Notes: generated by a model from the sequence alone, not told the origin. A DNA stretch of 64,000 nucleotides from an uncultured Thermoplasmata archaeon (GCA_964394465.1 CAYMXS010000001.1:33484-97483), one strand, 5' to 3'. Counted from the stretch's first letter, positions 804 to 24,229 are shown. A program made the numbers and translations.

Positions 804-1181
804 TCATGGTTTTCCTCCCCCGAAATGACCCTGGACGGTCTCATCATCTAGCTGGTTCAGTTCACCCTTCTCGAGCTTCTTTACCGCTTCCTCGACCTCT
901 CCGGATCCCTTATATACCTCGATGTCCGCAGAATTCAATGTGCGATAGGCATTCGGGCCTATGTTACCGCTTATAACCGTGTCAACTTCCATGTCAGAAA
1001 GGGTCTGGACTACCTGGGGACCGACGCCATGGGCTTCCCTGGAATGAGGATTCTCCATGCATTCAAAATCCATCTCTTTTGTATCTACTATAACGAAGTA
1101 AGGGCATCTGCCGAACCTTTCGTCTATCTCTGCCTTCTCATCCGGATCTTTTGCTGATATTGCAACATTCATATCATTCAC
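804..1181 (-). CDS. Dinitrogenase FeMo-cofactor-binding (NifX/NifB-like, Nitro_FeMo-Co) domain protein
   Basis: 125-aa ORF. The pattern NVAISAKD...ERFGRCPYFVIVD...HGVGPQ...VISGNIGPNAY matches the NifX/NifB-like FeMoco-binding fold. It overlaps the upstream Mrp gene by 8 nt. Confidence 0.6.
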   Translation of the reverse strand: MNDMNVAISAKDPDEKAEIDERFGRCPYFVIVDTKEMDFECMENPHSREAHGVGPQVVQTLSDMEVDTVISGNIGPNAYRTLNSADIEVYKGSGEVEEAVKKLEKGELNQLDDETVQGHFGGGKP

Positions 1182-1935
1182 CCAATCTTTCTTTCAGTTT
1201 CTCTGTAATCTTTTCAAAGGGATCTGTGCCCGTTTTCTTATCCACGAAGGGTTCACCTTCCTCACCGCTTGACATGATCTCTGGGTCCAACGGTATCTTC
1301 CCGAGGAATGGAACTCCCGCACGCTCCGCCATCCTTTTGCCTCCACCGGAGCCGAAGACATCAATCTCTTCTCCACAGCTCGGGCATGTGAGTCTGCTCA
1401 TGTTCTCTATGACGCCCAGGACCTCCATGTCAACCTTTTCTGAGAAAGATATGGATCTTCTCACCGCCTGGACTGAGACTTCTTGGGGAGTCGTAACGAC
1501 TACCGAACCGTCGATATCCGATATCTGCTGCGCGATGCTCAGCGGCTCGTCTCCCGTACCTGGGGGTAGGTCTATGACGAGATGATCTATACCTTTCCAT
1601 CGGACCTGTTCCATGAACTGTTTGATCGCTTTCATCTTTAAAGGACCTCTCCATATCACCGCGGAATCGTCGTCGGGCAGCAGAAACTCCATGGAGACCA
1701 CTTTCAGGTTGGATGAAGCCTCTACTGGTTCTATAGAATCTTCTTCTTGAGCCGTCATCAACTCCTCTTTGACTCCCAGCATCTGAGGTATGGAGGGCCC
1801 GTGAAAGTCGCTGTCGAAGACCCCTACTTGGTTCCCCTCCGAGGCCAGCTTGGATGCTAGATTTGCGGCTACAGTACTCTTGCCGACGCCTCCCTTTCCG
1901 CTCATTACAGCTATCTTCTTCATCGGACTACTCAA
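1174..1935 (-). CDS. Mrp/NBP35/ApbC-family iron-sulfur cluster carrier ATPase
   Basis: 253 aa with a deviant Walker A KGGVGKST at the N-terminus. The body is ParA/MinD-like and there is a C-terminal CPSCGEE motif. This is the typical Mrp/NBP35 architecture. Confidence 0.85.
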   Translation of the reverse strand: MSSPMKKIAVMSGKGGVGKSTVAANLASKLASEGNQVGVFDSDFHGPSIPQMLGVKEELMTAQEEDSIEPVEASSNLKVVSMEFLLPDDDSAVIWRGPLKMKAIKQFMEQVRWKGIDHLVIDLPPGTGDEPLSIAQQISDIDGSVVVTTPQEVSVQAVRRSISFSEKVDMEVLGVIENMSRLTCPSCGEEIDVFGSGGGKRMAERAGVPFLGKIPLDPEIMSSGEEGEPFVDKKTGTDPFEKITEKLKERLGE

Positions 1936-2009
1936 ATGTTAAGGAATATAAATAAGTTTTTCTACCCGAATATGATTCGGCCTGCAAAAACTTTTATACC
2001 ACATATTCT

Positions 2010-2240
2010 GTGATACCACTAATCATGCTTCTAAACCACCTCGATGTAGGGGAAGAAGGCAGGATCGTTTCTATAGAGGGTGGTCGTGGTTTCAGGCAGA
2101 AATTGGCCTTGAGAGGCGTCCGTGAGGGCTCCATAGTCCGGGTCATCTCCTATCACGGACCCTTGACGGTAGAGGTGGATAGCTCCATGGTCTCCATGGG
2201 TAGGGGGATGGCTAGCAAGATCAGAGTGAGACGGTTGTGA
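2010..2240 (+). CDS. feoA: FeoA-family small protein (ferrous iron transport protein A)
   Basis: 76 aa. LDVGEEGRIVSIEGGRGFRQKLALRGVREGSIVRV is the SH3-like FeoA motif. It sits immediately upstream of a second feoA and of feoB. Confidence 0.6.
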   Translation: MIPLIMLLNHLDVGEEGRIVSIEGGRGFRQKLALRGVREGSIVRVISYHGPLTVEVDSSMVSMGRGMASKIRVRRL

Positions 2241-2473
2241 TATGCATGGAGAAGGAACTAAATGACATGGACTACGGAGAGAAGGGGGTCATAAAAGAGA
2301 TAGAAGAAGAGCTAAAGATGAAGCTCTCCGGGATGGGGGTCCGAGAAGGTAAAGGGTTGATCTTCAAGACGAGACATCCCATAAACGGTCCAGTTGTTAT
2401 AGAGGTCGAAGGTTCTACCACGTCCATGGGCGCCGGTCTAGCCGGCAAGATAACGGTGGAGGTCGAGGAATGA
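2237..2473 (+). CDS. feoA: FeoA-family small protein, second copy
   Basis: 78 aa. MDYGEKGVIKEI...LSGMGVREGKGLIF matches FeoA. Its 4-nt overlaps with neighbours suggest an operon. Confidence 0.6.
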   Translation: MICMEKELNDMDYGEKGVIKEIEEELKMKLSGMGVREGKGLIFKTRHPINGPVVIEVEGSTTSMGAGLAGKITVEVEE

Positions 2474-3000
2474 AGCTGTTGTTGATGGGTCATCCAAACG
2501 TGGGAAAGAGTGTCCTGTTCAACCGTTTGACCGGCGCCAGCGTGACTGAGTCGAACTACCCGGGCACTACAATCGATTATACCGAGGGGTACATGCAGTT
2601 GGACGGCGAAGAGATACAGCTCATCGATGTACCTGGAACGTTTTCGCTGGAACCCAGGGACAAGGCGGAAGAGGTGGCTGTCGAGATGCTGGAAGATAAT
2701 CCCGACTCGGTGGTCATATGCGTCATAGATTCCACAAAGCTGGAGAGGGGCCTTTACCTGGCGTTAGAGATCATGGAGAAGGGCTTCCCGATGATCATCG
2801 CCTTGAACATGTGGGACGTGGCCGAGGACAAGGAGATCGATATAGACGTAGAGCGATTGAGGGAGATCCTAGAGGTACCAGTGATCCCAACGATCGCGGT
2901 GAGCGGTAAAGGAGTGAAGGAGCTGGTATCCGAGGTGAAGAGAGCGGACCCAGTGGATGTTTCAAGGGTCAAAGAGGAAGTGGAGGTCAGCCCTAAATGA
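2470..3000 (+). CDS. feoB: Ferrous iron transporter FeoB, N-terminal GTPase (G-domain) polypeptide of a split FeoB
   Basis: 176 aa. GHPNVGKSVLFNRLTG is the G1 motif and DVPGTFSL is G3. NMWD is a probable G4, and the domain belongs to the FeoB small GTPase family. The stop overlaps the start of the membrane part. Confidence 0.85.
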   Translation: MKLLLMGHPNVGKSVLFNRLTGASVTESNYPGTTIDYTEGYMQLDGEEIQLIDVPGTFSLEPRDKAEEVAVEMLEDNPDSVVICVIDSTKLERGLYLALEIMEKGFPMIIALNMWDVAEDKEIDIDVERLREILEVPVIPTIAVSGKGVKELVSEVKRADPVDVSRVKEEVEVSPK

Positions 3001-4232
3001 AGCTGGACGTCGATGAAAGGTGGGACCTGGTCGACAGGATAGCCGAGGAAACGGTCAACTACGGGGAGAGGGAGACCACGCTGAAGGACGCCATAGCCGA
3101 GATAACGGTCAAGCCCTGGACCGGCATACCTATAGCTATAACGGTTCTATACGGCTTCTGGGCCTTCTTCGGGGCCTTTGCAGGCTTCTTCACGGACGGC
3201 TTCTTCGTGAAGATATTCGACGAGCACTGGCTGCCCTGGCTTCAGAGTGCCTTTCCCGGCAAGGGCTCCTGGTACTACTTCATACTGGTGGGTGACCCAG
3301 CCGCGGGAAACAGCTTCGAGGCCTTCGGGGTCCTCACCTCCGGTCTGTTCGTGGCCGTGGGTGTCGTCTTACCTGCCATCACCGCCTTCTATCTCTATCT
3401 TATAATCCTGGAAGACAGCGGGTACATGCCCAGATTGGCCGTGTTAGTGGACACATTACTGCACAAGATAGGCCTGCACGGATTCGCTATAGTTCCGATG
3501 GTCCTTTCACTGGGATGTAATGTTCCTGGTGTCGCTGCGACTAGGACCTTGCAGACGAAGAAACAGCGCTTCATGATGATGACGCTCCTTGCCATATTCA
3601 TACCGTGCGGCGCTCAGCTCGGTGTCATTTTCTCTCTGATACCTCAGTACGCCGGCATGATCTTGATCTACCTGTTGATAGGTTTCTTCTTCTTCGGATT
3701 CGTACTGCATAAACTTATACCCGGCAGGTCCCCTGAGATACTGATCGATATACCTCCCTACAGGATGCCCTCCCTGGACAACGTATCCAAGAAACTGTGG
3801 GTCCGGACGAAGTCTTTCTTCACTACGGCGATCCCCTTTGTGCTGTTCGGCGTTGCGTTGGTCAATATCCTTTATCTTGGTGGAGTCATCGATTTTTTGG
3901 CTGGGGCTCTAGGGCCAATTCTCACCAACTGGTTCGGAGTACCCCAGGAGACCATAGGACCCCTTATAGCCGGGTTCCTCAGGAAGGACCTAGCCGTAGC
4001 ACAGCTATCCGCTATAGAGATGACGAAGTATCAGTTGATCAGTTCCGTGGTTCTTGTCAACCTGTACTTCCCCTGTATAGCCACGTTCATAATGATGATG
4101 AAGGAGGGCAGTGAGAGGGGTATAAAAGGGGTGTTAGAGAACCTGGGAGGGAGTATTCTAGTTCTACTGACGGTACTCTTCGTATGGGGCGGCCTGTTGC
4201 ATCTCATCTGGATCGTATCGGGGGTGGGCTAG
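2997..4232 (+). CDS. feoB: Ferrous iron transporter FeoB, C-terminal polytopic membrane polypeptide of a split FeoB
   Basis: 411 aa and highly hydrophobic. FeoB gate-motif-like segments are present, and it starts inside the stop of the G-domain gene. Confidence 0.8.
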   Translation: MKLDVDERWDLVDRIAEETVNYGERETTLKDAIAEITVKPWTGIPIAITVLYGFWAFFGAFAGFFTDGFFVKIFDEHWLPWLQSAFPGKGSWYYFILVGDPAAGNSFEAFGVLTSGLFVAVGVVLPAITAFYLYLIILEDSGYMPRLAVLVDTLLHKIGLHGFAIVPMVLSLGCNVPGVAATRTLQTKKQRFMMMTLLAIFIPCGAQLGVIFSLIPQYAGMILIYLLIGFFFFGFVLHKLIPGRSPEILIDIPPYRMPSLDNVSKKLWVRTKSFFTTAIPFVLFGVALVNILYLGGVIDFLAGALGPILTNWFGVPQETIGPLIAGFLRKDLAVAQLSAIEMTKYQLISSVVLVNLYFPCIATFIMMMKEGSERGIKGVLENLGGSILVLLTVLFVWGGLLHLIWIVSGVG

Positions 4233-4691: not shown

Positions 4692-4747
4692 GGCTTTATA
4701 AGTTATGGAGATAAAAAACCGAAAGGTTTTAGACCCACCGAATAATT

Positions 4748-5206
4748 GTGTACTCGATGCTTGGAAAAAGAGAAGAGGAATATCTCGAATCTATATACGA
4801 AGTGGTACAGGATAAAGGATACGCCAAGGTGAAGGATATATCTGATGTGATGGATGTCGGTCTCTCCTCGGTAACGGAGATGTTCCAAAAACTGGATGAT
4901 AAGGGCTACATAAACTACAAGAAGTACAGCGGAGTGACCCTGACTGAGAAGGGGGAAGATAAGGCCGTTGAACTGTCGGAGAAACATGAAGTCCTTAGAG
5001 ATTTCTTCGTCATCCTGGGGGTCGATGAGGATATCGCCGACGAGGACGCCTGTAATATCGAGCATGTTGTAAGGCCGGAGACGATGGACAGGTTGACCCA
5101 ATTCGTGGACTTCATCGAGAGCCATGAAGAGCTGCCCTGGCTCGATAGGTTCAAGGAGTATTACGAGACCGGTGATCTGGAGCGACATACCCCGGACGAA
5201 GAGTAG
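4748..5206 (+). CDS. DtxR/MntR-family metal-dependent transcriptional repressor
   Basis: 152 aa. An N-terminal wHTH (EEYLESIYEV...GYAKVKDISDVMDVGLSSVTEMFQKLDDKGYINY) is followed by a metal-binding/dimerisation region (EKHEVLRDFF..EDACNIEHV). It lies next to the feo genes. Confidence 0.8.
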   Translation: MYSMLGKREEEYLESIYEVVQDKGYAKVKDISDVMDVGLSSVTEMFQKLDDKGYINYKKYSGVTLTEKGEDKAVELSEKHEVLRDFFVILGVDEDIADEDACNIEHVVRPETMDRLTQFVDFIESHEELPWLDRFKEYYETGDLERHTPDEE

Positions 5207-5243
5207 AGAGATAACCAAGCATATTTCTATCGCTCGGATAATC

Positions 5244-5261
5244 TTCGGCTAACCAAAATTA
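5244..5261 (+). promoter_or_regulatory. Conserved 18-mer TTCGGCTAACCAAAATTA upstream of metK. It is a candidate operator/BRE-proximal regulatory site.
   Basis: Identical at 17 of 18 positions to 9541-9558 upstream of the nuoB-like gene. It sits 52-69 nt upstream of the metK ATG, directly 5' of an A/T-rich TATA-like stretch (5254-5270). Confidence 0.4.
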
Positions 5262-5312
5262 TTAATATTTTGATCATCCTGCGGTACAGGAATAGGATAG
5301 AAGGTCTTTGAT

Positions 5313-6464
5313 ATGAAAAGAAGAGCTGGAGATGAAAGGTATCTTTTGACCTCGGAGTCCGTCACAGAAGGTCATCCAGATAAGATGGCGGACAAGATAA
5401 GCGATGCGATACTGGATGAATTCCTCAGGAAGGATCCAAACTCCAAGGTCGCCTGCGAGACCGTCTTGACCAACGGGATGGCTTTTGTAGCGGGAGAGAT
5501 CACCAGTGAAGGCTACGTGGATATCAACGACGTGGTCAGAGAGACCGTTAGAGACATAGGTTATACGGAGTTCGAATACGGCTGCGAGGCCAATTCCTGT
5601 GGTGTAACAACGGCGATACATAAACAGAGTACAGATATAGCTCGGGGCGTAGAGAGAGAGGACCAAGGTGCCGGTGATCAGGGTATAATGTTCGGTTATG
5701 CTACTGACGAAACGGAGGAGATGATGCCACTGCCCATAACCATGGCACATAAACTGGTGGAGAGGCTGACAGAAGTGAGAAAAGAGGATATCCTTTCCTA
5801 CCTGAGACCCGACGGCAAATCTCAGATCACCCTGGAATATCGAGGCTGCGAGGCTGTAAGGGTTGATGACGTTGTTATAGCGGCACAGCATGATCCAGAG
5901 ATAGATATGAGAAAACTGCGGGAGGATGTAAAAGAGGAGGTAATCCAGCCCGTCTGCGGGTCACTTTTGGATGGAAAAACGTCCTACAATATCAATGCTA
6001 CGGGAAGGTTCGTCAGGGGTGGTCCTCATGCAGACACCGGTCTGACGGGCAGGAAGATCATAGTGGATACCTATGGGGGTCACGGCAGCCACGGAGGAGG
6101 CTGTTTCTCGGGGAAGGATCCTTCTAAAGTGGACAGGTCCGGCGCCTACATGTCCAGGTATATCGCCAAGAACGTGGTTAAAGCGGGTCTGGCCAAGAAG
6201 TGCGAGGTCCAACTCAGCTACGCTATCGGTGTTTCAGAGCCCACGAGTATACTCGTGAATACGTATGATACGGGTAATATTCCTGAATCCGAGATACAAG
6301 AACTCATAAGAGAAGGGTTCCCGCTGAAGCCCCGGGATATGATAGAGCATCTCGATCTTCTGAGGCCGATCTATCGAAAAACGGCGGCCTACGGACACTT
6401 CGGTAGAGATGAAGAAGAGTTCACGTGGGAGAAGACCGATCGTATAGATCTTTCTGATCGGTAG
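5313..6464 (+). CDS. metK: S-adenosylmethionine synthetase, bacterial/eukaryotic type (MetK)
   Basis: 383 aa. It shows the hallmark motifs [37 protein letters not shown] and [13 protein letters not shown]. It is co-linear with E. coli MetK along the whole length. Confidence 0.9.
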
Positions 6465-6466
6465 AT

Positions 6467-7222
6467 ATGCATCAAAGGGAGATAGGTATGATGATAGTAG
6501 AAGAGATACTCGAGACGGTGGAGTATGAGCTGGAAGAGAGAAAAGCTCAAGATGTTTTGATCGGTCTGTCCTATACCATGGTAAAACTCGATGACGGACG
6601 GACCGGTCTGGCCAACACGATAATAGAAACGGACAGCCCCTGCAGGTCACTGCAGGACAGAGCCGGTGACCTTTCTGGTGAGAACGCCCTGCAGTTGGCT
6701 GAGGAACTGAAGAGCACGGACCTTATCCGTTCGTCTTTAGGTCTAGCGACCATAAACGCCGTGGTCAACTCCGATATAGAGAGTGACTGTCCTCCCATGA
6801 TGAAGTCCTTGGATATATCGGAAAAAGATACGGTAGGCATGGTGGGACATTTCAGACCTTTGGTAGATAGGATAAAAGAGAGGAGTAAGGAACTGTATGT
6901 GATCGAGAGAAAGGACCACAGCGAGGACTACATCTACCCGGACTGGACATCCAGCATGTTACTGCCGAGGTGCGATAAGGTCATAATATCTGGTTCCACC
7001 TTGATAAACAAGACGATAGATCACCTGCTGTCCCTCTGTGATGGGACTGTGGGTATCATGGGACCGTCCACCACACACAGCCCAGTCTTTAAAGAAGAGG
7101 GCGTGGGTTATCTCTTTGGATCTAGAGTGGTCGATCCAGAAAGGTTGTTCAAGATAATATCAGAAGGAGGAGGAACTAGAGCCTTCGGTGAAACTGTAGA
7201 AAAAGTGAACCAGAAGCTTTGA
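6467..7222 (+). CDS. DUF4213/DUF364-family protein (a so-called putative heavy-metal chelation Rossmann-like domain)
   Basis: 251 aa. The N-terminal pattern VLIGLSYTMVKLDDGRTGLANT and the C-terminal Rossmann-like block (VGMVGHFRP..VIISGSTLINKTIDHLL) match my recollection of this family. There is only a 2-nt gap after metK. Confidence 0.55.
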   Translation: MHQREIGMMIVEEILETVEYELEERKAQDVLIGLSYTMVKLDDGRTGLANTIIETDSPCRSLQDRAGDLSGENALQLAEELKSTDLIRSSLGLATINAVVNSDIESDCPPMMKSLDISEKDTVGMVGHFRPLVDRIKERSKELYVIERKDHSEDYIYPDWTSSMLLPRCDKVIISGSTLINKTIDHLLSLCDGTVGIMGPSTTHSPVFKEEGVGYLFGSRVVDPERLFKIISEGGGTRAFGETVEKVNQKL

Positions 7223-8673: not shown

Positions 8674-9420
8674 TCATCCTTCGATCCCCTCATCTATCTC
8701 TCCGTTGGGTAACATGGAGTCTGGATGGTATTCGCCTCTCTCCTCCTTTTGGTACCTTACACAGCTCTTCCAGTCGCCCTTGCAGTACAGTTCCACCCAT
8801 CTTCTGTCTATCTTTCCGGCTTCATAGAACCGCTTCATCGGACATACATCGTACCATTTGCACTGTTTCAAGAAGACATTCAATTTCTCATAGTGCCTCT
8901 TCATGTCCTCCTCGAAGGAGTCGTCGTACAGTAAGGAAGCGGGATGAGCTAGAGGATATATTTTCTTGCTATCAGCTAGAAACAGTTCCCCGGTGATCTC
9001 CGAGAATTCCTCCTCGAACGAAAGGTCGTACTTCCCGAATAGATATCTTGTGGAGTAGTATCCCAGAGGTACGAGTATATCCGGATCCACTATATCTATC
9101 TCCCTATCTAGGTACTCGGAGCACGTTTCGATCTCGTCCTGTTTCGGTTTCCTGTAATCCGGCAGCATGCACTTGATCAGGTTCGTCATGTATATCTCGT
9201 CACGCTCGACTCCAGCGTTGTTCAACATCTCATCTAGGACCTCTCCCGAAGGACCTATGAACATCACGCCTTCTTCATCCTCGTTCTCGCCAGGAGCCTG
9301 TGCTATCAGCATGACCCTAGCGTTCCTGTCCCCCTCTCCACACACCGCGTTAGTCCTACTCTCGGAGAGCCTGCATCCTTCGCATATCTTTATCTTCTTG
9401 TTGAGTCCGTGTAGCTTCAT
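8674..9420 (-). CDS. Uracil-DNA glycosylase, family 4 (4Fe-4S type) with a Cys-rich C-terminal extension
   Basis: 248 aa. The N-terminal Cys cluster is CEGCRLSESRTNAVCGEG. The motif-A-like VMLIAQAPGENED and motif-B-like LAHPAS are present. About 60 extra C-terminal residues carry C..C..C (KQCKWYDVCPMKRF...YCKGDWKSCVRY). Confidence 0.75.
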   Translation of the reverse strand: MKLHGLNKKIKICEGCRLSESRTNAVCGEGDRNARVMLIAQAPGENEDEEGVMFIGPSGEVLDEMLNNAGVERDEIYMTNLIKCMLPDYRKPKQDEIETCSEYLDREIDIVDPDILVPLGYYSTRYLFGKYDLSFEEEFSEITGELFLADSKKIYPLAHPASLLYDDSFEEDMKRHYEKLNVFLKQCKWYDVCPMKRFYEAGKIDRRWVELYCKGDWKSCVRYQKEERGEYHPDSMLPNGEIDEGIEG

Positions 9421-9539
9421 GGTTGACTCTTCTCTAAACAGAGTTCATCTTTTAAACTTCAAGGGTCTCGGAGTCATCCTGATTTTTGTTCCTCAAATCC
9501 TATTTTACAACCCACCATATATTTTATCTACCAAAAATC

Positions 9540-9558
9540 TTTCGGTTAACCAAAATTA
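9540..9558 (+). promoter_or_regulatory. Conserved motif TTTCGGTTAACCAAAATTA upstream of the nuoBCDI-like operon. It is near-palindromic around GGTTAACC.
   Basis: TTTcGGTTAACCaAAA is a 16-bp imperfect palindrome. It is flanked by direct ACCAAAA(A/T)T repeats at 9530-9538 and 9548-9556. It lies ~95-110 nt upstream of the start and upstream of TATA-like tgtataat (9573-9580). Confidence 0.4.
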
Positions 9559-9650
9559 CAAATAAACCCACCTGTATAATGAGGTTATATCTGTATGATC
9601 GATCAACTCAGCTATAAAAGCTTACACAATGCTGCAGGGAGACGGATAAC

Positions 9651-10076
9651 TTGAGTCATGACCCGAAGAAGATGAAGAAACTCATAAAGGCTATATGGAT
9701 ATTCAACTGGTTCAACTCGTGTGGGTTCGCTGAACTCATACCGGTCGTTGGTTCCCGATGGGATATGGAACGCTTCGGTATGAAGGTGGTGGGAACACCT
9801 CGACACGCGGACGTCCTGTTCATCGCTGGTTATCAGACCAAGAAATCGATAAAAAAAGCCCAGCGTGTGTACGAACAGATGGCCGAGCCCAAGGTCGTAC
9901 TGGCGTTAGGTTCATGCACCATGACCGGAGGCATGTACTGGGATTCCTACAACACCATAAAGGATCTGGAAGAGTATCTTCCGGTGACCATGTACATCCC
10001 TGGCTGTCCCCCGAGACCCGAAGCGGTCTTCGACGCCTGTGTGCAGATATTCGAACACGTGAAGGGGATGGAATAG
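9651..10076 (+). CDS. NuoB/FpoB/hydrogenase-small-subunit-like protein (complex I 20-kDa subunit family)
   Basis: 141 aa (TTG at 9651; first ATG at 9672). RHADVLFIAGYQTKK, GSCTMTGG and IPGCPP are the family motifs. The first cluster motif is SCGFAE, whereas CC or CxxC is expected, so one Cys ligand is missing. Confidence 0.8.
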   Translation: MSHDPKKMKKLIKAIWIFNWFNSCGFAELIPVVGSRWDMERFGMKVVGTPRHADVLFIAGYQTKKSIKKAQRVYEQMAEPKVVLALGSCTMTGGMYWDSYNTIKDLEEYLPVTMYIPGCPPRPEAVFDACVQIFEHVKGME

Positions 10077-10580
10077 ATGCCCTTGAAAGAGACAGAGATG
10101 TTGGATGAACTGAAGTCTAGGTTCGACCTCGAAGGGAGGATCCAGAGGGATGGTAGGATCTGGGTAACGATAGATAAAAGGGACCTGATCGAGCTGTGTG
10201 TTAAGCTCGATGAGTCAGGATTTACCCACCTCTCTGCCATATCGGCGACGGACTGGCCCGAAGATGAAGAGTTCGAACTGACCTATCATGTCTGGTCCTA
10301 CAGCGAAGACGTGCTCATCACGGTCAAAACGTCCATGGAGAGAGGTGATCCCATAATAGACTCAGTCGTACCGATATGGAGAGAGAACGCCCAGATACAT
10401 GAGAGGGAGATACACGAGCTGTTCGGCATCGATTTCGAAGGGAACGATGACCTAGAACCTCTATTCCTGGAGGACTGGAACGGTCCACCCCCTTTCAGAA
10501 AGGACTTCAACTGGAGGGAGTATGTGCAGGACGAATTCTATGATGAAGAGGATGAGAGGGAGAGTGTGTACTTTGATTAG
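10077..10580 (+). CDS. NuoC/FpoC-like protein (complex I 30-kDa subunit family)
   Basis: 167 aa. The NuoC-like core is ELTYHVWSY...ERE.HELFGIDFEGN. It starts 1 nt after the nuoB-like stop. Confidence 0.75.
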   Translation: MPLKETEMLDELKSRFDLEGRIQRDGRIWVTIDKRDLIELCVKLDESGFTHLSAISATDWPEDEEFELTYHVWSYSEDVLITVKTSMERGDPIIDSVVPIWRENAQIHEREIHELFGIDFEGNDDLEPLFLEDWNGPPPFRKDFNWREYVQDEFYDEEDERESVYFD

Positions 10581-10599
10581 TCAAGAGGGCCTGACCAGG

Positions 10600-11724
10600 A
10601 TGATGAACGACTCAAGGAAAGGCTCAGAAGAGAAGGGATACGACCTTTACTTCGGTCCAGCGCATCCAGGTTCCGGTAACTTCGGTGTCAAGCTGAGAGT
10701 TCAGGGTGAAGAAGTGGTCAAGGCTAGAGCCGATCCAGGCTATCTGCACAGGGGCTTCGAAAAACTGATGGAGTATAGGGTTCCGATACAGAACTCCGTC
10801 CTATCGGACAGATTGTGCGTCCTAGCCGGTCTTAACTGGAACCTTTTACATGCCGAGGCCGTGGAGGAACTGGCGGGGATAGAGGTTCCTGAAAGGGCAC
10901 GGTATATCCGGGTGATAATGGCTGAACTGTCCAGGATACAATCACATCTGATCTGGTACGGTGTTTTCTCCAAGGCTATAGGCTTCGACACCGGCTTCAA
11001 GATAGCCTTCGGCCACAGGGACTATATATTGGACCTGTTCGAGATGATAACCGGCGGTAGGGTCTATCCCGCTGGCTATGTATGTCCCGGCGGGGTGAGA
11101 AGAGACCTTCCAGAGGGATCGGAGGAGAAGATACTCAAGGTATTACTGGACCTGGAAGACATGATAAACATGGAGGAGACCGATCATTACACCTTGCTCA
11201 AAAGGTCCAAGGATGTAGGACACCTTACTCAAGAGGAAGCAAAACGTTTCGGTGCAACGGGTCCAGTCCTCAGAGGATCAGGAGTGAAGAAGGACGTTAG
11301 AAAGGAAGAATCATACGAGGTGTACGATAGATTCGATTTTGAGGTCCCGACCAGAAAAAAGGGAGACGCTAGAGCTAGATACATAATAGGAATAGAAGAG
11401 ATGAAGCAATCTAGAAGGATAATCAGGCAGGCTCTGGACGATATACCCGAGGGAAGATCCATAAACTCCGATCTCGAGAAACCCCAACTGAGAGGAGACC
11501 TACCTGAAGGTGAGGTCTACGTGAGGAACGAGGTCTCCAGAGGAGAAGGAGCGATATATATGGTGGGTAACGGGGAAAAGGAACCATATAGAGTGAAGAT
11601 CAGGGGCCCAGACTTCTTGCACATGATACCGCTCTTCGAGCACATGCTGGAAGGTGCCCAAATAGCGGACGTCCCCGCGATATACTGGAGTCTGAACGTG
11701 TGTCCCGCAGATATGGATAGGTGA
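10600..11724 (+). CDS. NuoD/FpoD-like protein (complex I 49-kDa / [NiFe]-hydrogenase large-subunit family, without NiFe-binding Cys pairs)
   Basis: The longest ORF starts at 10522 and would overlap nuoC by 59 nt. The start chosen here is the ATG at 10600, just after the nuoC stop. LYFGPAHPGSGNFG corresponds to the NuoD N-terminal motif. Where a hydrogenase RxCGxC would lie there is only RLCVLAG. The C-terminus has NVCPADMDR in place of DPCxxC. Confidence 0.8.
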   Translation: MMNDSRKGSEEKGYDLYFGPAHPGSGNFGVKLRVQGEEVVKARADPGYLHRGFEKLMEYRVPIQNSVLSDRLCVLAGLNWNLLHAEAVEELAGIEVPERARYIRVIMAELSRIQSHLIWYGVFSKAIGFDTGFKIAFGHRDYILDLFEMITGGRVYPAGYVCPGGVRRDLPEGSEEKILKVLLDLEDMINMEETDHYTLLKRSKDVGHLTQEEAKRFGATGPVLRGSGVKKDVRKEESYEVYDRFDFEVPTRKKGDARARYIIGIEEMKQSRRIIRQALDDIPEGRSINSDLEKPQLRGDLPEGEVYVRNEVSRGEGAIYMVGNGEKEPYRVKIRGPDFLHMIPLFEHMLEGAQIADVPAIYWSLNVCPADMDR

Positions 11725-11730
11725 ATATAG

Positions 11731-12114
11731 ATGCTTGGAATGCTCCCTAGGTTGTTGAAGAACCTGTTCACGAAGCCCATGACGGTCGAGTATCCCCACG
11801 AATCGATCCCCATACCAGAGGATTACAGAGGGGCTCATGAATATGATGTAGAGAAGTGCGTGTCCTGTTCCATGTGTGCCAAAATCTGCCCAAATAACGC
11901 TATAAAGATGATCGGGGCTCCGGATGAGCTGAAAGAGGAGTTCCCCAAAACCTATCCTGAGATAGACCTGGGTAAGTGCTGTTTCTGTGCCCTCTGCGAG
12001 GATATATGTCCCACAGATGCTCTGTGCATGTCCAAGGAATATTCCCTCTCGACCATGGACCCCGAGGACACCTTCATCGAGCCGTTTCCAGACCATGGAG
12101 AGGAGGCCGAATGA
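11731..12114 (+). CDS. NuoI/FpoI-like 2x[4Fe-4S] ferredoxin subunit
   Basis: 127 aa with CVSCSMCAKICP and CCFCALCEDICP. The N-terminal ..TVEYP.. is as in NuoI. Confidence 0.8.
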   Translation: MLGMLPRLLKNLFTKPMTVEYPHESIPIPEDYRGAHEYDVEKCVSCSMCAKICPNNAIKMIGAPDELKEEFPKTYPEIDLGKCCFCALCEDICPTDALCMSKEYSLSTMDPEDTFIEPFPDHGEEAE

Positions 12115-12168
12115 TAGACCTGGTAGTAAGATAAAGAGAGATAATAAGATGAGATAAGGAGGTATAGT

Positions 12169-12924
12169 ATGAACAGACTGAAGATAGATAAGGAGTGGTG
12201 GAACGAGGTGGTACCGCAGGGATTACCATATCCGTCGTCAACGCTGATAAGTGGACCTGGGGGCTCAGGAAAACCGTTGATAGGATTCGCTTTCGTTCAC
12301 GACTGGTTGAGGGCCGGAGGCAACGTCGTATTCGTGCCTCTCCAGTATCCGGATATGGTCTTCGTAAAAAAGACCTTGAAGGACCTTTACGATATGGACT
12401 TGGAGGGATACGAAGAGAACACCTCCTACGTGCAGTTCGATCCTGAGATCGAAGGGCATGAAAAGGTAGGCCAGAACGAGTGGAGAGCAAACTTATTGAT
12501 GCCGGACATATGGGATGAGATGATAGATGAAGCCGAATATTCGATGGCGGATGGTGGAGAATTGGGTACGCTGGTCTTCGCCTCTGCATTGAACATCCTC
12601 CTGTTCTCCCCCACATACCGGGAACTGACGGTAGATAACATAGAGAGGCTTTTGCGAGACAAGAGGGGACGATCATTCCTCTTCAATGTAAGCACCAGTG
12701 CCTTCCGAGAGGCTGTAAGAGACTGGGAAGAGGCTGCCGACAACCTGATGTTCTCCAGGATGGGAGATGACATGAAACTTTATCTAACCGTAGATAGGTT
12801 AGCGAACGAGGAGGTCGCTCTTGACGAGGTCTACGTGCCGATCGAAAGGGAGATGCTGCAGGAGATAAAGGATGTGGCCGAGACCGTCAGGAAGCGAAGG
12901 ATACCTCAGCTGAAGGAGATCTAA
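12169..12924 (+). CDS. RecA-superfamily ATPase-like protein (KaiC/RadA-like, COG0467-type) with a deviant Walker A
   Basis: 251 aa. The P-loop ISGPGGSGKPLIG reads GKP where GKT/S is expected. A RecA-like core follows. Confidence 0.45.
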   Translation: MNRLKIDKEWWNEVVPQGLPYPSSTLISGPGGSGKPLIGFAFVHDWLRAGGNVVFVPLQYPDMVFVKKTLKDLYDMDLEGYEENTSYVQFDPEIEGHEKVGQNEWRANLLMPDIWDEMIDEAEYSMADGGELGTLVFASALNILLFSPTYRELTVDNIERLLRDKRGRSFLFNVSTSAFREAVRDWEEAADNLMFSRMGDDMKLYLTVDRLANEEVALDEVYVPIEREMLQEIKDVAETVRKRRIPQLKEI

Positions 12925-12926
12925 AG

Positions 12927-13574
12927 GTGATGGATATGAAGGTGACCATCGTATATGACAACACGGTCTATAGGGAAGGTTTAGAGAGTGACTGGGGCAT
13001 CTCTGCCCTCGTTGAAAAAGAAGGTGTCCCCAAGATACTGTTCGATACAGGGGGCAGTGGACGTATACTGCTCAACAACATGGACAAGCTGGGTGTGGAT
13101 CCAAGATCGATAGAAGAGGTCTTCATCTCACACGCCCATTATGACCATACTGGGGGACTGTCCGCGCTCCTCACTGAGAACAGAGAAGTCACGGTCTGGA
13201 AACCCCCTTCCTTCAGAGGGGTCAAGAATGCAGAGGAAGTGGTCACGGTCGAAGGGCCGGCTGAACTGCATGACGGAGTCCATTCTACGGGAGAACTGCA
13301 GGGTATCGAGCAGTCGCTGTGCGTGGAGACCGAAAGTGGTATCGTCGTTCTGGCGGGCTGCTCCCATCCAGATATGGGAAATATACTGAAGATTGCCTCT
13401 CAGTTCGGCGATGTCCATGGTATAATCGGGGGACTTCATGGGACGAAGAGCGGACAGCTGAAGGGCCTCGAGTTGATATGCGCAACCCACTGCACCCAGC
13501 ACAAAGAAGCCATCAGGAAGAGATATCCTGAGCAGTACATGGAAGGGGGAGTTGGAAGGGTCATAGAGATCTGA
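12927..13574 (+). CDS. MBL-fold metallo-hydrolase (paralogue B)
   Basis: 215 aa. ISHAHYDHTGGL is the HxHxDH motif. It is roughly 40% identical by eye, co-linear, to the 7225-7893 protein, on the opposite strand. Confidence 0.6.
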   Translation: MMDMKVTIVYDNTVYREGLESDWGISALVEKEGVPKILFDTGGSGRILLNNMDKLGVDPRSIEEVFISHAHYDHTGGLSALLTENREVTVWKPPSFRGVKNAEEVVTVEGPAELHDGVHSTGELQGIEQSLCVETESGIVVLAGCSHPDMGNILKIASQFGDVHGIIGGLHGTKSGQLKGLELICATHCTQHKEAIRKRYPEQYMEGGVGRVIEI

Positions 13575-13661
13575 TAAGGGATGATGTTCGTGTTTGAAGA
13601 TAACTAGTTCGATCGATCTGTAAAGCAGGAGAAAAGATCATGAAATATAAGAGGTAAAAGG

Positions 13662-14831
13662 ATGAAGAACGAGATAGATGTATCTGAAAGGATTAGAAAT
13701 ATAGAGAAATCAGCCATACACGAGATGACCAGATTGTCCAAGGATATAGACGACGTAGCGTTCATCTCCTGGGCGAAGCCGACTTCTAAGACGCCCAGAC
13801 ATATACGAGACGGTGCTATAAAGGCCATAGAGGACGGCTCGGTCGGAGGCTATTCACAGAGTGAAGGATTACCGGAACTCAGAGAAGAGATCGCCAAGAA
13901 GCTGAGAAGGGACAACGATATAGACGCTAGAAAGGAGGAAGTGATGGTCACAGTGGGCGCTATAGAGGGACTTTCGGCCGCCATGATGACCGCCATCGAC
14001 CCAGGAGACGAGGTCATCCTTCCTTCACCGACGTACTCGACCCATATAAGGGAGATTTTACTTGCTTCTGGCAAACCAGTCTTCGTGCCCAGTATAGAGG
14101 AAGAAGGTCATGCTCTGGATATCGAAGGTATCGAAGAGGCCATCACGCCGAAAACGGAGGCTATAATATACTGCTCACCGAGCAACCCGACCGGTGCTGT
14201 TTACACCGAAGAGCAACTAAAACAGCTGGCCGATATAGCATTGGAACACGACCTAACGGTCATCACCGACGAGGCCTACGAGTATTTTACATACGACGGT
14301 CAGGAGCACTTCAGTATCGGCTCGATACCTGAGATGAAGAAGAACACGATCAGCGGTTTTACCTTTACGAAGACGTATGCCATGACTGGCTGGCGTCTGG
14401 GTTATCTTCACGCCGACGAGGAGATGATCAAGCAGATAAAGAAGGCACACATACCCTTCGCGATATGCGCTCCAGTTGTTTCTCAATATGCAGCACTTTC
14501 AGCTCTAAAGGGACCACAGGACTGCGTTGAAGAGTTCAGAGAGCATTACCTTTCTGGACGTGACCTGATGTGCGACCGTCTTGACGAGCTGGACGAGGTC
14601 TTCGATTATCAGAAGCCAAAGGGGTCTTACCTCATGTTCCCCAGGGTTAAACTCGAAGAGGGTAAAGACTCTACCAGTTTCGCTAAAAGACTGCTGAAAG
14701 AGGCGAAGGTTTCAGCTACTCCCGGGATAGCGTTCGGTCCGACGGGAGAAAGCCACCTCAGGATGTCGTTCTGCGTTTCCGAGGACATGATAAACAAGGC
14801 CTTCGACCGGATGGAGGACTATTTCACATAG
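13662..14831 (+). CDS. Pyridoxal-phosphate-dependent aminotransferase, class I/II (AspAT-like)
   Basis: 389 aa. The fold-type I pattern is present, including SPSNPTG and the TFTKTYAMTGWRLGY PLP-lysine region. Confidence 0.85.
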   Translation: MKNEIDVSERIRNIEKSAIHEMTRLSKDIDDVAFISWAKPTSKTPRHIRDGAIKAIEDGSVGGYSQSEGLPELREEIAKKLRRDNDIDARKEEVMVTVGAIEGLSAAMMTAIDPGDEVILPSPTYSTHIREILLASGKPVFVPSIEEEGHALDIEGIEEAITPKTEAIIYCSPSNPTGAVYTEEQLKQLADIALEHDLTVITDEAYEYFTYDGQEHFSIGSIPEMKKNTISGFTFTKTYAMTGWRLGYLHADEEMIKQIKKAHIPFAICAPVVSQYAALSALKGPQDCVEEFREHYLSGRDLMCDRLDELDEVFDYQKPKGSYLMFPRVKLEEGKDSTSFAKRLLKEAKVSATPGIAFGPTGESHLRMSFCVSEDMINKAFDRMEDYFT

Positions 14832-14836
14832 GATAG

Positions 14837-15202
14837 ATGATAACGATGGACGACGAAGAGATACTCGCCATGGAGCCCGGAGAGGAGATGAACAAAAGGG
14901 TTGCCGAGAAGCTGATGGACGGGGTTTCTGGTGACTATTCTCAGGACGTTTCCTCCTCCTGGAAGGTGGTCAAAAGACTCTGCGAGACGGGGTGGAGGAT
15001 GGATATCATGTCCTCCAAAAAGGAGGAGAACGTGGGCGGTATCAAGATGGTGAACGGCACTCCAGTGAGCTTGAACTTCCTCGCGGAACGGGTGAAGTGC
15101 GATAACCTTCCAGAGGCGGTATGTAAGGTCGCTTTACTGATCAAAAACAACTCCCATCGTATCGAGGATATCGTTTCTGATACTGGTCAACGAAGCATTT
15201 AA
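14837..15202 (+). CDS. Hypothetical protein resembling the phage ABA-sandwich domain (Phage_ABA_S-like)
   Basis: 121 aa. EEMNKRVAEKLMDG..YSQDVSSSWKVVKRLCETGW..LPEAVCKVALLI mirrors the ELDALVAEKVMGW / AAWEVVEKL / AICRAAL pattern I recall for that domain. Confidence 0.35.
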   Translation: MITMDDEEILAMEPGEEMNKRVAEKLMDGVSGDYSQDVSSSWKVVKRLCETGWRMDIMSSKKEENVGGIKMVNGTPVSLNFLAERVKCDNLPEAVCKVALLIKNNSHRIEDIVSDTGQRSI

Positions 15203-15227
15203 GGTGATGTAAACCATATCATCCAAC

Positions 15228-16172
15228 ATGGAAGAGAAGCTCTCCTACGGGCCGGTACCGTCAAGACGTCTGGGCCAGAGCCTAGGGGTCAACAACATAC
15301 CTCCCAAGATATGCACCTATTCATGCATCTACTGCCAGCTCGGAAGGACTCTTGATATGCAGGTGGAGAGGGAGGAGTTCTACACAGTGGAAGAGGTCTT
15401 TGAGGCGGTGAAGGAGAAGGTCGAAACTGCTGAAGAGAACAACGAAGAGATAGATCACATCTCGTTTGTACCGGACGGAGAACCCACTCTGGATAGGAGT
15501 TTAGGAGAGAAGATAGAAAGGGTAAAAGACCTGGGTCAAGAAGTTGCGGTCATATCCAACGCTTCCCTGATTTACGATGAAGAAGTGAGGGAAGACCTAT
15601 CCAAGGCGGATTGGGTCTCCCTTAAGATGGACGCCGTTTCCAAAGAGGGGTGGAAGAAAGTCAATCGACCGCACAAGGACTTGGACTTGGAAAGGATCAT
15701 GGACGGCATACACAAGTTCTCAGATATGTTCAAAGGAAGTTTGAACACCGAGACCATGCTGGTCGAAGGAGTGAACGACTCCACATCGGAGCTGGATAAG
15801 ATAGCTGATGAGCTGGTCGATATAGACGCGGATAAGAGTTATATCGGGATACCGACGAGGCCTCCAGCCGAGGACTGGGTTAAGCCGCCGGATGAGAAGA
15901 AGATAACCGAGGCCTACAGGATATTCGAAGAAGAAGGTCTCGATGTTGAATATCTTATCGGTTATGAAGGCGACACATTCGCTTCCTCCGGTGACCTGAA
16001 AGAGGACCTACTGAGCATAACCTCGGTGCACCCCATGAGAGAGAGGCAGGTGGAGAAGCTGATCTCGAAGTCTAAGGGTGATTGGTCCGAGGTCCAGGAA
16101 CTCATCGAAGAGGAAAAACTTATAGAGACGGAGTTCAAGGATGAAAAATTCTATATGAGAAAACTAGCTTGA
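15228..16172 (+). CDS. Radical SAM protein
   Basis: 314 aa. The N-terminal YGPVPSRRLGQSLGVNNIPPKICTYSCIYCQLG carries the CxxxCxxC cluster motif. The subfamily could not be assigned. Confidence 0.75.
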   Translation: MEEKLSYGPVPSRRLGQSLGVNNIPPKICTYSCIYCQLGRTLDMQVEREEFYTVEEVFEAVKEKVETAEENNEEIDHISFVPDGEPTLDRSLGEKIERVKDLGQEVAVISNASLIYDEEVREDLSKADWVSLKMDAVSKEGWKKVNRPHKDLDLERIMDGIHKFSDMFKGSLNTETMLVEGVNDSTSELDKIADELVDIDADKSYIGIPTRPPAEDWVKPPDEKKITEAYRIFEEEGLDVEYLIGYEGDTFASSGDLKEDLLSITSVHPMRERQVEKLISKSKGDWSEVQELIEEEKLIETEFKDEKFYMRKLA

Positions 16173-16194
16173 GGATGAATCCCAGGGGTAGTAC

Positions 16195-16761
16195 ATGACT
16201 GAAGAGATAGAGAGATGGGAAAGAGAGGAAGGACCTGATTTTCTCAGGAAGATAGGGCTCGAAGAGGGCGACAAGGTCCTAGATTTTGGAGCCGGCCACG
16301 GTCATTACACTCTTCCAGCCGCCGCTGTGGTCAAGGGCGCTGGAACGGTCTACGCGGTGGATAAGGAGGAGGGTCCGCTTCATTCCATAGCCGATAAGGC
16401 CTCTGAACACGGACTGAGGAACGTTAGAACGATAAAGAACTCCGGCGGTATAGAGCTCAAGTTCGAGGAAAACTCCATAGACAGGGTACTGCTTTTCGAT
16501 ATACTGCACTACATGGAAAGAGAGGATAGAAGGGAACTGTATCGGGAAGCCAGGAGGATACTGAAACCTGAAGGCGTTCTGTCCGTCTATCCTAAACATA
16601 CCAAGGAGGACTTCCCCATGGGTGAGTTCGAAGACATGAGCGTGGAAGACGTGGCCAACGAGGTACAGGAATTGGGCCTAGAACTCAAGGATAAGATATA
16701 CGGGAAGATAGCCCACGACGAGGGACTCGTTGAAGGCTGTGTTCTGAACTTCATCAAATGA
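16195..16761 (+). CDS. Class I SAM-dependent methyltransferase
   Basis: 188 aa. VLDFGAGHGHYT is motif I and a Rossmann MTase fold follows. Confidence 0.7.
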   Translation: MTEEIERWEREEGPDFLRKIGLEEGDKVLDFGAGHGHYTLPAAAVVKGAGTVYAVDKEEGPLHSIADKASEHGLRNVRTIKNSGGIELKFEENSIDRVLLFDILHYMEREDRRELYREARRILKPEGVLSVYPKHTKEDFPMGEFEDMSVEDVANEVQELGLELKDKIYGKIAHDEGLVEGCVLNFIK

Positions 16762-17399
16762 AAGAACTAGTGAGCCACATGGAACCCTTTGAACGATACA
16801 CGGAACGCTACGAGGATTGGTTCGAGAGGAACAGATCTGCGTATAAATCGGAGCTCAAAGCCGTTGATGAGTTGTTACCGGATGAAGGCGAAGCCCTAGA
16901 GGTGGGAGTCGGAACTGGCAGGTTCTCCGAACCTTTTTCAGTTGAACACGGCATAGACCCGTCTTTGAAGATGCTGAAGATAGCGAGGGAAAGGGGCATA
17001 AAGGTCGTGCAAGGTACGGGTGAAGAACTCCCCTTCGAAGGTGAAAGTTTCGATCGGGTTCTGATAGTCACCACGATATGCTTCTTTGAAGAACCAAAAA
17101 AGGCTCTAGAGGAAGCGAAAAGGGTCCTAAAGCCTGGCGGTGCCATCATCATCGGTTTTATAGACAGGGAAAGCCCTATAGGTAGAAGATACCAGGAGAA
17201 GAAGGAGGAGAACGTGTTCTACAGGGAAGCTGTATTTTTCTCTGCTCAGGAAGTCACGGAACTGCTTGAAGATGTAGGATTCAAGGATCTCTCTTATGTT
17301 CAAACTCTCTTCGGAGTAGAAACGAGGGAGGTCGAAGAACCGAAGAAGGGATGCGGCGAGGGCTCCTTCGTTGTAATCGGAGCTAAGAAATCCAGATGA
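16758..17399 (+). CDS. Class I SAM-dependent methyltransferase (UbiE/Methyltransf_11-like)
   Basis: 213 aa. LEVGVGTGRF is motif I and LKPGGAIIIGF is the post-II motif. It overlaps the preceding MTase by 4 nt. Confidence 0.75.
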   Translation: MKELVSHMEPFERYTERYEDWFERNRSAYKSELKAVDELLPDEGEALEVGVGTGRFSEPFSVEHGIDPSLKMLKIARERGIKVVQGTGEELPFEGESFDRVLIVTTICFFEEPKKALEEAKRVLKPGGAIIIGFIDRESPIGRRYQEKKEENVFYREAVFFSAQEVTELLEDVGFKDLSYVQTLFGVETREVEEPKKGCGEGSFVVIGAKKSR

Positions 17400-19174: not shown

Positions 19175-19183
19175 CTGTGAGGA

Positions 19184-19336
19184 TCACTCCCATCTGCCTA
19201 TCATCCTCGCTCCACACTCGGGACATCTGATGCTCGAGCAGGGCGTCCCTCTTCGGTGCTTCTCCTCGTGTCCACAGTTAGGGCATACACACGTTTCTGG
19301 CGGTCCGCCCTGCCCTCTTCTTTTTCTTCTTCTCAT
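19184..19336 (-). CDS. 50-aa arginine-rich zinc-ribbon peptide (MRRRKRRGQGGPPETCVCPNCGHEEKHRRGTPCSSIRCPECGARMIGRWE)
   Basis: Not in the ORF track because it is under 60 aa. I translated it by hand. It ends 10 nt upstream of the CDF gene on the same strand. It has CPxCGH...C...CPxCG spacing, and I recall this as a conserved small archaeal protein family. Confidence 0.5.
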   Translation of the reverse strand: MRRRKRRGQGGPPETCVCPNCGHEEKHRRGTPCSSIRCPECGARMIGRWE

Positions 19337-19474
19337 AGATATCCCGATGTTTTACACTTATGTGTAGTTATTATTAAATATTGAGATTTTGGCTCCTTGT
19401 TATAGATGTTAAAAAGATATACCTATCGTGTTACCTTTATCCAAAAACTTATTAATAACATCATTATCTAAGAC

Positions 19475-23964: not shown

Positions 23965-24154
23965 GTTTGAGGAATCCGATAGAGAGTAAATAAGTATTTT
24001 TCTTGAGGAAATTGTTAAATATGAAAAATATGTGTTGGTTGATGCTTGGCCTTGATTGGCTTAGGTTTCCTAATAAGAGCAAATGGCTATACGTTTGCTC
24101 CTACGGGGAATCAGAGATTCCCCTGAGTCGCAAGATTTCACTACGTTCAATTTT

Positions 24155-24229
24155 GCTCCCGTAGTGTAGTCCGGCCAATCATTTTGGCCTCTCGAGCCAA
24201 AGTCCCGGGTTCGAATCCCGGCGGGAGCA
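24155..24229 (+). tRNA. tRNA-Glu (anticodon CUC)
   Basis: 75 nt: GCTCCCG-TA-GTGTAGTCCGGCCAATCAT-TTGGC-CTCTCGA-GCCAA-AGT-CCCGG-GTTCGAAT-CCGGG... folds as a cloverleaf. The acceptor stem pairs GCTCCCG with CGGGAGC, and discriminator A is at 24229. The D-arm GUGUAGUCCGGCCAAUCAU is the archaeal tRNA-Glu form. The 7-nt anticodon loop has U33 and G37. No CCA is encoded. Confidence 0.85.

Follow-up and report, generated by a model that had tools for sequence, protein, structure and literature searches.

A putative DtxR/MntR-family operator upstream of feoA, dtxR, metK and nuoB in an uncultured Thermoplasmata archaeon

Each subunit of IdeR binds one CCTAA pentamer, such that a single dimer occupies repeats 1 and 3 of the iron box as TTAGG-N4-CCTAA; IdeR also binds half boxes that hold a single dimer, one of which is predicted at the complex I (nuo) operon of Saccharopolyspora erythraea (PMC8464063). 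The ChIP-seq motif of Haloferax volcanii TroR, TTTAGGC-NNN-CCTAAAANAN (CCTAAAA), often occurs in tandem and serves iron-dependent repression (PMC10783522), and the MntR dimers of B. subtilis occupy 18-bp dyads that lie 1 bp apart, i.e. with a 19-bp period, and in which an A/T pair is conserved at +/-7 (PMC11882963). For MDR1 of Archaeoglobus fulgidus, an archaeal DtxR homologue, PMC3074139 quotes the consensus GTT-N8,9-AAC. Analysing a 64,000-nt stretch of DNA from an uncultured Thermoplasmata archaeon (hereafter, the window), we found a putative operator that has the arm and spacer geometry of the IdeR and TroR sites, and the tandem period of the MntR sites.

As in TroR, the setting is archaeal, the 5-bp arms (TTAGG/CCTAA in TroR) are 4 bp apart with an A-rich tail on one side, and the sites are often in tandem and upstream of iron-uptake genes; either TroR copy suffices for iron-dependent repression. 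In two related genomes, L018 and L019, the L018 feoA and L019 metK sites are literally TTAGG-N4-CCAAA. Unlike in TroR, where the middle bases of the two pentamers are A and T, the left pentamer here mostly has C/T in this place and the right one A/G, and the predicted regulon reaches metK and a NuoBCDI-like operon. With B. subtilis MntR (PDB 1on1, 2f5c; E ~1e-24 to 1e-25), the presumed regulator shares two domains, a length of ~145 aa and, up to the end of the recognition helix, the residue numbering, and the sites share both the 19-bp offset and the conserved A/T pair at +/-7. In contrast to MntR, the base-contacting residues His35, Pro36 and Lys41 are replaced by Gly35, Leu36 and Glu41, the ligand Glu99 by Cys, the promoter context is archaeal, and the core of the predicted regulon is feoAB, not mntH/mntABC.

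The DtxR/IdeR iron box TTAGGTTAGCCTAACCTAA likewise involves recognition of CCTAA-like pentamers and one dimer on two pentamers 4 bp apart (PMC8464063), but it packs four overlapping pentamers into 19 bp, to which two dimers bind from opposite faces with a shift of 5 bp, whereas the dimer sites here would stand side by side with a 19-bp offset. With only two pentamers per site, the next site 19 bp off and a best identity of 13/19 by hand count, the operator is not the classical 19-bp iron box, half of which a preliminary description of the window had seen in it. Unlike DtxR and IdeR, the regulator of 149 aa consists of DNA-binding and dimerization domains only and lacks the SH3-like third domain. 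Like MDR1, it is an archaeal DtxR-family protein, predicted to be an autoregulated repressor, that is encoded with a metal transporter operon; unlike in MDR1, the recognition sequence is another one, and the feoA, metK and nuoB operators are on the BRE side of TATA, not downstream. The MDR1 operators of Bell et al., described in 1999, are reported to overlap the transcription start, as the predicted operator at the dtxR promoter would here.

The 18-mer pair and the putative operator motif

The 18-mer TTCGGCTAACCAAAATTA is located at 5244-5261(+) before metK, and its counterpart TTCGGTTAACCAAAATTA at 9541-9558(+) before nuoB. Inspection of the sequence confirmed both positions and the 17/18 identity given in the preliminary description; the likeness runs on 5′ with one indel, AATCTT(T)CGG, is limited to ~24 nt and is without a flanking repeat. 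The metK region, previously taken for a divergent promoter, is not one, because dtxR and metK share a strand.

A pattern-specific test of the 18-mer, which was post hoc, gave two occurrences where 0.02 were expected. Comparison of all pairs in the 64-kb window found ~10 unrelated 17/18 pairs in coding DNA, and this whole-window test proved uninformative, being swamped by chance pairs and by pairs from repeat proteins. Elsewhere in the window, three consecutive, very large ORFs of 1290, 1277 and 2844 aa at 36927-53488 have many near-identical internal repeats in common, as would repeat-rich surface proteins. Within the 5.45 kb of intergenic DNA, the 18-mers are the sole 17/18 pair, and at least one such pair arose in 6% of Markov-3 simulations (p ~0.06). 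The pair by itself is borderline, so that the case rests on location and context, and on conservation. A scan of one representative genome for each of 185,579 species (the source genome being outside this set) returned 15 single matches in unrelated bacteria, which is at or below a rough chance estimate of ~35.

In all instances, the conserved unit is the inverted repeat TTyGG-N4-CCrAA, a 14-bp core of two pentamers with the dyad centre between its positions 7 and 8. The palindrome GG(C/T)TAACC, proposed earlier as the core, does not describe it: the outer pentamers TTyGG and CCrAA are conserved, whereas the central 4 bp vary. Inverted CCTAA-like pentamers 4 bp apart are what a single-dimer operator of the DtxR/MntR family consists of. 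An extra CCrAA pentamer usually stands 5 bp 5′ of the dyad (CCrAA-N5-TTyGG-N4-CCAAA) and is part of a second dyad, often half-degenerate, 19 bp upstream. When offsets were counted on 41 non-redundant strict sites, 16 had a second site with at least 6/8 arm positions at -19 bp and 10 had one at +19 bp, with a few more at +/-18 and almost none elsewhere over 10 to 45; this is the tandem arrangement of MntR-type operators, in which 18-bp dimer sites 1 bp apart give the 19-bp period. The 14-bp core carries little information. A symmetric 14-bp PWM scored its top matches in the window at 16.7 and 15.5, whereas in shuffles the top score averaged 13.5 and reached 20 at most; this PWM is too weak alone for window-wide significance. 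An equally good, strict match at 32941 falls within the N-terminal part of the MatE coding sequence and is best explained by chance.

Four promoters and their genes

Within 8 kb, the window carries four operators, at the promoters of feoA and a NUBPL-like gene, of dtxR, of metK and of nuoB. Of the sites with at least 7/8 arm positions, 4 fall in the 5.5 kb of intergenic DNA and 10 in the 58.5 kb of coding DNA, and the four intergenic sites are exactly those of the feoA, dtxR, metK and nuoB promoters. The sites and associated boxes are as follows.

1957..1989, no strand assigned: palindromic double operator between feoA and the divergent NUBPL/ParA-like gene, TTTTT-CTAC-CCGAA-TATGA-TTCGG-CCTG-CAAAA; second-best PWM match of the window
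4719..4742 (+): predicted dtxR autoregulatory operator, CCGAA-AGGTT-TTAGA-CCCA-CCGAA; 11/12 positions; ends 14 nt before ATG 4757
5225..5238 (+): tentative weak partner 5′ of the metK operator, TTCTA-TCGC-TCGGA; placed 19 bp from the strong site by the 19-bp tandem rule
5244..5257 (+): metK operator, strong predicted dimer site TTCGG-CTAA-CCAAA; 8/8 arm positions; core of the 5244-5261 18-mer
5259..5268 (+): putative TATA-like box of the metK promoter, TTATTAATAT; 1 bp past the operator arm, in the pattern of other BRE/TATA pairs of the window; conserved in L018 and L019
9522..9554 (+): nuoB operator, half-degenerate TTTTA-TCTA-CCAAA (9522-9535) plus strong TTCGG-TTAA-CCAAA (9541-9554); top PWM match of the window; conserved in L018 and L019
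9556..9566 (+): putative TATA-like box 3′ of the nuoB operator, TTACAAATAAA; CTACAAATAA in L019, CTATAAATAT in L018

Upstream regions across the window carry archaeal BRE/TATA elements of the form AAAAAC-TTATWTATA. The 3′ part of both 18-mers, CCAAAA followed by TTATTAATA or TTACAAATA, resembles such a pair, and the 5′ TTCGG is additional. The gap between operator and TATA is 1 bp at metK, 1 bp at nuoB and 2 bp at feoA, and is the same at feoA in the relatives. The feoA double operator sits in a 74-bp gap with outward-facing TATA-like boxes at 1992-1998(+) and 1945-1955(-), and the latter box, that of the NUBPL-type gene, abuts the outer operator arm. At dtxR, a TATA-like box (4695-4701) precedes the operator. 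At metK, 10/12 positions of the three-pentamer pattern match over 5234-5257, the upstream pentamer being degenerate (TCGGA); at this threshold of at least 10/12, the window holds 7 matches versus 4.4 expected, 6 of them in the four promoter regions, such that only the location of the matches is informative. A divergent transcript toward a UDG-family gene (8674-9420) could be a further target of the nuoB operator, because TAGATAAAATATAT comes after this operator when the minus strand is read (9500-9555(-)); the UDG-family gene has a nearer TATA-like box of its own.

The presumed binder and the predicted target units are listed below.

1174..1923 (-): NUBPL/ParA-type Fe-S P-loop NTPase, predicted divergent target; Pfam PF10609, E 2e-97; gene call in L106
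2010..4691 (+): feoA-feoA-feoB (GTPase domain)-feoB (membrane domain)-152-aa ORF, predicted target operon; Pfam; operator upstream
4757..5206 (+): two-domain DtxR/MntR-family metalloregulator, 149 aa, presumed binder; Pfam Fe_dep_repress and Fe_dep_repr_C
5313..7222 (+): metK (bacterial-type SAM synthetase) and DUF364/DUF4213 gene, predicted target operon; Pfam; operator 5244-5257
9651..17399 (+): nuoB-C-D-I-like genes, KaiC-like ATPase, MBL-fold protein, aminotransferase, 121-aa ORF, radical-SAM protein and two methyltransferases, predicted target operon, with its extent taken from short intergenic gaps; Pfam and NCBIfam

The feoAB operon ends just before dtxR. Within the feo locus (2010-4232), feoA is present as a tandem pair and feoB is split into a GTPase-domain gene (2470-3000) and a membrane-domain gene (2997-4232) that overlap by 4 nt; feoB of L018 is a single fused gene (571 aa). 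The MetK protein is of bacterial type (PF00438, PF02772, PF02773) in an archaeon, and the DUF364/DUF4213 gene starts 2 nt later; DUF364 is absent directly after metK in L018 and L019. The NuoB/C/D/I-like genes at 9651-17399 have no membrane-arm subunits nearby, and in L018 (15861-19259) a lone NuoB-like gene stands directly before radical-SAM and methyltransferase genes; this points to a non-respiratory role of the NuoB-like genes.

The feo and ABC loci had been singled out earlier as places where further copies would be telling. The feoA promoter does carry a double operator, but the FecCD-type ABC locus has no site: in the window, sites with at least 7/8 arm positions are absent upstream of the FecCD-type ABC transporter (19175-19474), an FmdE-like gene and a CDF exporter. 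In ~17 kb of extra flank on both sides of the window, no further intergenic operator was found. Just upstream of the CDF exporter, which is fused to a NifB/NifX-like domain, lies a 50-aa double-CxxC zinc-ribbon ORF (19184-19336(-), …CPNCGHEEKHRRGTPCSSIRCPECGARM…), and a similar small zinc-ribbon-like ORF is present in L018 at about 9480-9620, between the ferredoxin gene and metK.

A third copy had been proposed at 24272-24290(-). The sequence exists, but its membership is not supported, as it comprises the TAACCAAAA arm only and the left arm is missing; this position is not among the best 14 PWM scores listed, the lowest of which is 7.0. In the same tRNA flank (24154-24510), 24333-24355 holds a further copy of the tRNA-Glu(CTC) 3′ end, GAATCCCGGCGGGAGCATTTTT, and a partial copy lies near 24406, while a second repeat unit, TTTTTCGTTTTTTCTAAAAATGCGACC, is found at 24346-24378 and again at 24474-24506; these repeats resemble stacked remnants of att sites from integrations beside the tRNA. 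An archaeal RNase P RNA (Rfam RF00373, 189 bits) occupies 24802-25142(-), so that the overlapping 88-aa ORF at 24952-25218(-) is spurious. At the Rfam gathering threshold, this RNA and one tRNA were the only matches in the window, and L018 and L019 gave none. A riboswitch or other RNA element before metK was considered and set aside, as the metK leader has no Rfam match.

Sites in related genomes and metagenomic loci

The nearest MetK homologues are labelled as Thermoplasmata/Thermoplasmatota archaea, and the window itself carries the archaeal RNase P RNA and an archaeal-type tRNA. The related genomes L018 and L019 were reached via MetK homologues of 80% identity, and both have kept the site upstream of metK, as TTCGGCCATCCAAA in L018 and TTAGGTTTACCAAA in L019. 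Their sites are as follows.

L018, 5094 and 5143: TTAGGTGCACCAAA and TTAGGAGTACCTAA, before feoA
L018, 8895: TTTGGGCAACCAAAATTT, before ferredoxin, after a dtxR gene
L018, 9928: TTCGGCCATCCAAAATTT, before metK
L018, 15760: TTTGGTTTTCCAAAACTA, before the nuoB-like gene, which a radical-SAM gene follows
L019, 2028: TTCGGCCACCCAAAATTA, before aminotransferase/radical-SAM genes, after a dtxR gene
L019, 7998: TTAGGTTTACCAAAATTA, before metK
L019, 13823: TTTGGTTAACAAAAACTA, before nuoB

Thus, the aminotransferase/radical-SAM genes have a separate operator in L019. In alignments of the metK and nuoB upstream regions with L018 and L019, the operator-plus-TATA block is a conserved island amid diverged DNA. 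The metK upstream regions of these relatives are unusually long (L018 9413-10000, 588 nt; L019 7644-8070, 427 nt) and have conserved blocks in common beyond the operator, which are without an Rfam match. No site was found upstream of metK in four more distant relatives (L020, L103, L104 and L105; MetK 74-78% identical), so that the element does not belong to metK genes, or to promoters, in general.

For a broader view, a metagenome scan with an alignment of four regulators from the window, L018 and L019 yielded 80 loci. The strict pattern occurred 32 times versus 2.5 expected in loci with a DtxR homologue at least 52% identical to that of the window, 7 times versus 0.5 expected in L018 and L019 together, and 3 times versus 0.9 in the window. 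A three-pentamer operator ends 10-21 nt before the start of the dtxR orthologue in 16 of 30 distinct upstream regions (background, 0.009 per equivalent interval), and the same architecture is found at the same distance in L018. Together with the site at 4719-4742 of the window, the regulator gene is hence found with a site in its own promoter; such placement before dtxR is the classic signature of an autoregulated repressor, as DtxR is predicted to be here. Tandem operators also precede feoA, identified by Pfam, in L018, L031, L042, L044, L047 and L055, and a metal-uptake gene thus follows the operators in the window and in six other loci.

We also scored the window with an independent 24-nt PWM, built from 15 metagenomic dtxR autoregulatory sites only and including no sequence from the window, L018 or L019. 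Over 128,000 positions of the window, the highest score was that of the nuoB site (26.1 bits), followed by that of the feoA site (19.9 bits), while in 200 shuffles the second-best score was at most 16.4. The metK site scores low on this PWM because its upstream pentamer is degenerate, even though its 14-bp dyad is perfect.

The regulator, its presumed mode of action and alternative readings

The regulator gene had been placed at 4748-5206. Pfam bears out its family, but translation more likely starts at ATG 4757 than at GTG 4748. The closest solved structures are those of MntR (6kta, 1on1; E ~1e-25), and the protein scores 125.6 bits with the NCBIfam MntR model NF003025, below the cut-off of 138. 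Its ligand set is mixed, with Glu at the position of MntR Asp8 (DtxR Met10) and Cys at that of MntR Glu99 (DtxR Cys102). MntR proper was rejected on both counts, since the score is under the NF003025 cut-off and the Mn-type set (Asp8, Glu11, His77, Glu99, Glu102, His103) is broken at 8 (Glu) and 99 (Cys). Two groups of DtxR paralogues exist in the lineage; they are 44-46% identical, have the helix SSVTEM-QKL in common and differ at residues 35 and 36. The candidate binder is either the 149-aa protein of 4757-5206 or a close paralogue in which the recognition helix is identical. Iron is the likely effector, because feoAB forms the core of the regulon and the Cys ligand is present. This is in part what the preliminary description had proposed, although the protein is closest to MntR and its ligands are a mixture of Mn and Fe types. 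Manganese may serve instead and is kept in play because of the closeness to MntR and because some FeoB proteins carry Mn (PMC4805248).

We conclude that the 18-mer is probably the promoter-proximal part of an operator for a metal-sensing repressor of the DtxR/MntR family. The earlier suggestion of a regulon operator, probably for the adjacent DtxR-family repressor, is upheld by the sites in the promoters of dtxR itself, the tandem copies before feoA, the feoA double operator in the window and the geometry of known sites. Binding, the metal sensed and the sign of the regulation are inferred from these features. One metal-loaded dimer would bind the inverted pentamers TTyGG-N4-CCrAA, and a second dimer would often occupy the weaker site 19 bp upstream. 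At feoA, metK and nuoB, the gene-proximal arm CCAAA(A) is in the BRE position, 1-2 bp from TATA, so that TFB and TBP should be kept off by a bound dimer. The dtxR operator is instead placed between TATA and the start codon, over the expected transcription start, and bound repressor should therefore block polymerase recruitment and autoregulate its gene. When the metal, most likely Fe2+, is plentiful, feoAB-dtxR, the NUBPL-like gene, metK-DUF364 and the operon from nuoBCDI to the radical-SAM gene would be off; when it is short, all four target units would be derepressed. As metK and nuoB have the geometry of feoA, and feoA is expected to be off with metal, co-repression and co-induction on starvation are predicted.

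Several points weigh against this scheme: the low information of the 14-bp core with its equally good match in MatE, the degenerate upstream pentamer at metK, the metal genes of the window that have no site, and the two groups of paralogues. In addition, repression of an Fe-S-rich module such as NuoBCDI when iron is plentiful is contrary to the usual iron-sparing logic. The same operator could instead serve a metal-bound regulator that activates metK and nuoB, binding just 5′ of TATA and recruiting TFB/TBP, so that cells would produce Fe-S-rich and SAM-dependent enzymes only if metal were abundant. This is a live alternative, if an unlikely one, because members of the family can do both: Haloferax TroR represses iron uptake and activates storage genes (PMC10783522), and B. 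subtilis MntR turns on exporter genes from tandem sites (PMC11882963). Iron-sparing activation would also make physiological sense for the NuoBCDI module and the radical-SAM enzymes. Archaeal activators typically bind directly upstream of BRE/TATA; here, however, the proximal arm replaces the BRE rather than standing upstream of it, and the gap between operator and TATA at metK and nuoB is the same as at feoA, which metal should repress.

Far less probable is a core-promoter feature without a dedicated metal-sensing repressor, i.e. an extended BRE for a TFB paralogue or a strong-promoter consensus of the lineage. The right arm does always abut a TATA-like box at feoA, metK and nuoB, and CCAAAA plus TTATTAATA resembles other BRE/TATA pairs of the window, e.g. 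CCAAAAACTTATTAATA upstream of 19475, but the remaining promoters of the window are without the left arm TTyGG, and the palindrome is downstream of TATA at the dtxR promoters and away from TATA in the upstream tandem copies. A fixed place directly 5′ of TATA at promoters generally is thus not seen, and the dyad with its 19-bp tandem spacing is typical of dimeric regulators. Least credible of all is that the 18-mers are alike by chance, or are fragments of a dispersed repeat or mobile element without regulatory role. The other 17/18 pairs in the window, the marginal intergenic p value and the single matches in unrelated species genomes would fit such an origin, but conservation at orthologous positions next to a MetK that is only 80% identical, a more than tenfold enrichment in dtxR loci and a likeness that stops after ~24 nt with no flanking repeat speak against it. 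The conservation and the enrichment, together with the PWM ranking and the sites before dtxR orthologues, have largely refuted it.

Under the preferred reading of a repressor operator, the type of operator is already known. New are the regulon content in this lineage, namely metK and a NuoBCDI-like module that lacks membrane subunits and is tied to radical-SAM and methyltransferase genes, and the use of one operator arm that would double as BRE. More speculatively, and with rather low probability, the regulator couples metal starvation to the supply of SAM for a SAM-derived chelator or cofactor pathway, in which a metallophore-like compound would be made when iron is scarce. We raise this because metK is taken to be co-transcribed with DUF364, and because the second operator would drive NuoB-like Fe-S, aminotransferase and radical-SAM genes and two methyltransferase genes. 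The only characterized DUF364 enzyme converts methyl-SAM to methyl-azetidine carboxylate, i.e. it cyclizes a SAM derivative, and radical-SAM methylases are found along with it (PMC12930334); in methanogens, DUF364 genes adjoin metal-uptake genes (bioRxiv 10.1101/2024.03.05.583561). Against this reading, metK of L018 and L019 has no DUF364 gene after it.

Metal-dependent control of metK would be unusual, and the established picture of the DtxR family is not overturned. Comparative reconstruction of archaeal DtxR-family regulons, reportedly carried out by Leyn and Rodionov in 2015, is an established genre. What the present analysis provides is a testable regulon for an uncultured Thermoplasmatota lineage, in which a named candidate regulator would act on four promoters through a 14-bp dyad, and an example of how an MntR-like repressor may be wired onto archaeal BRE/TATA promoters. 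It suggests that SAM synthetase and a NuoBCDI/radical-SAM cluster were recruited to the metal-starvation response in one clade only.
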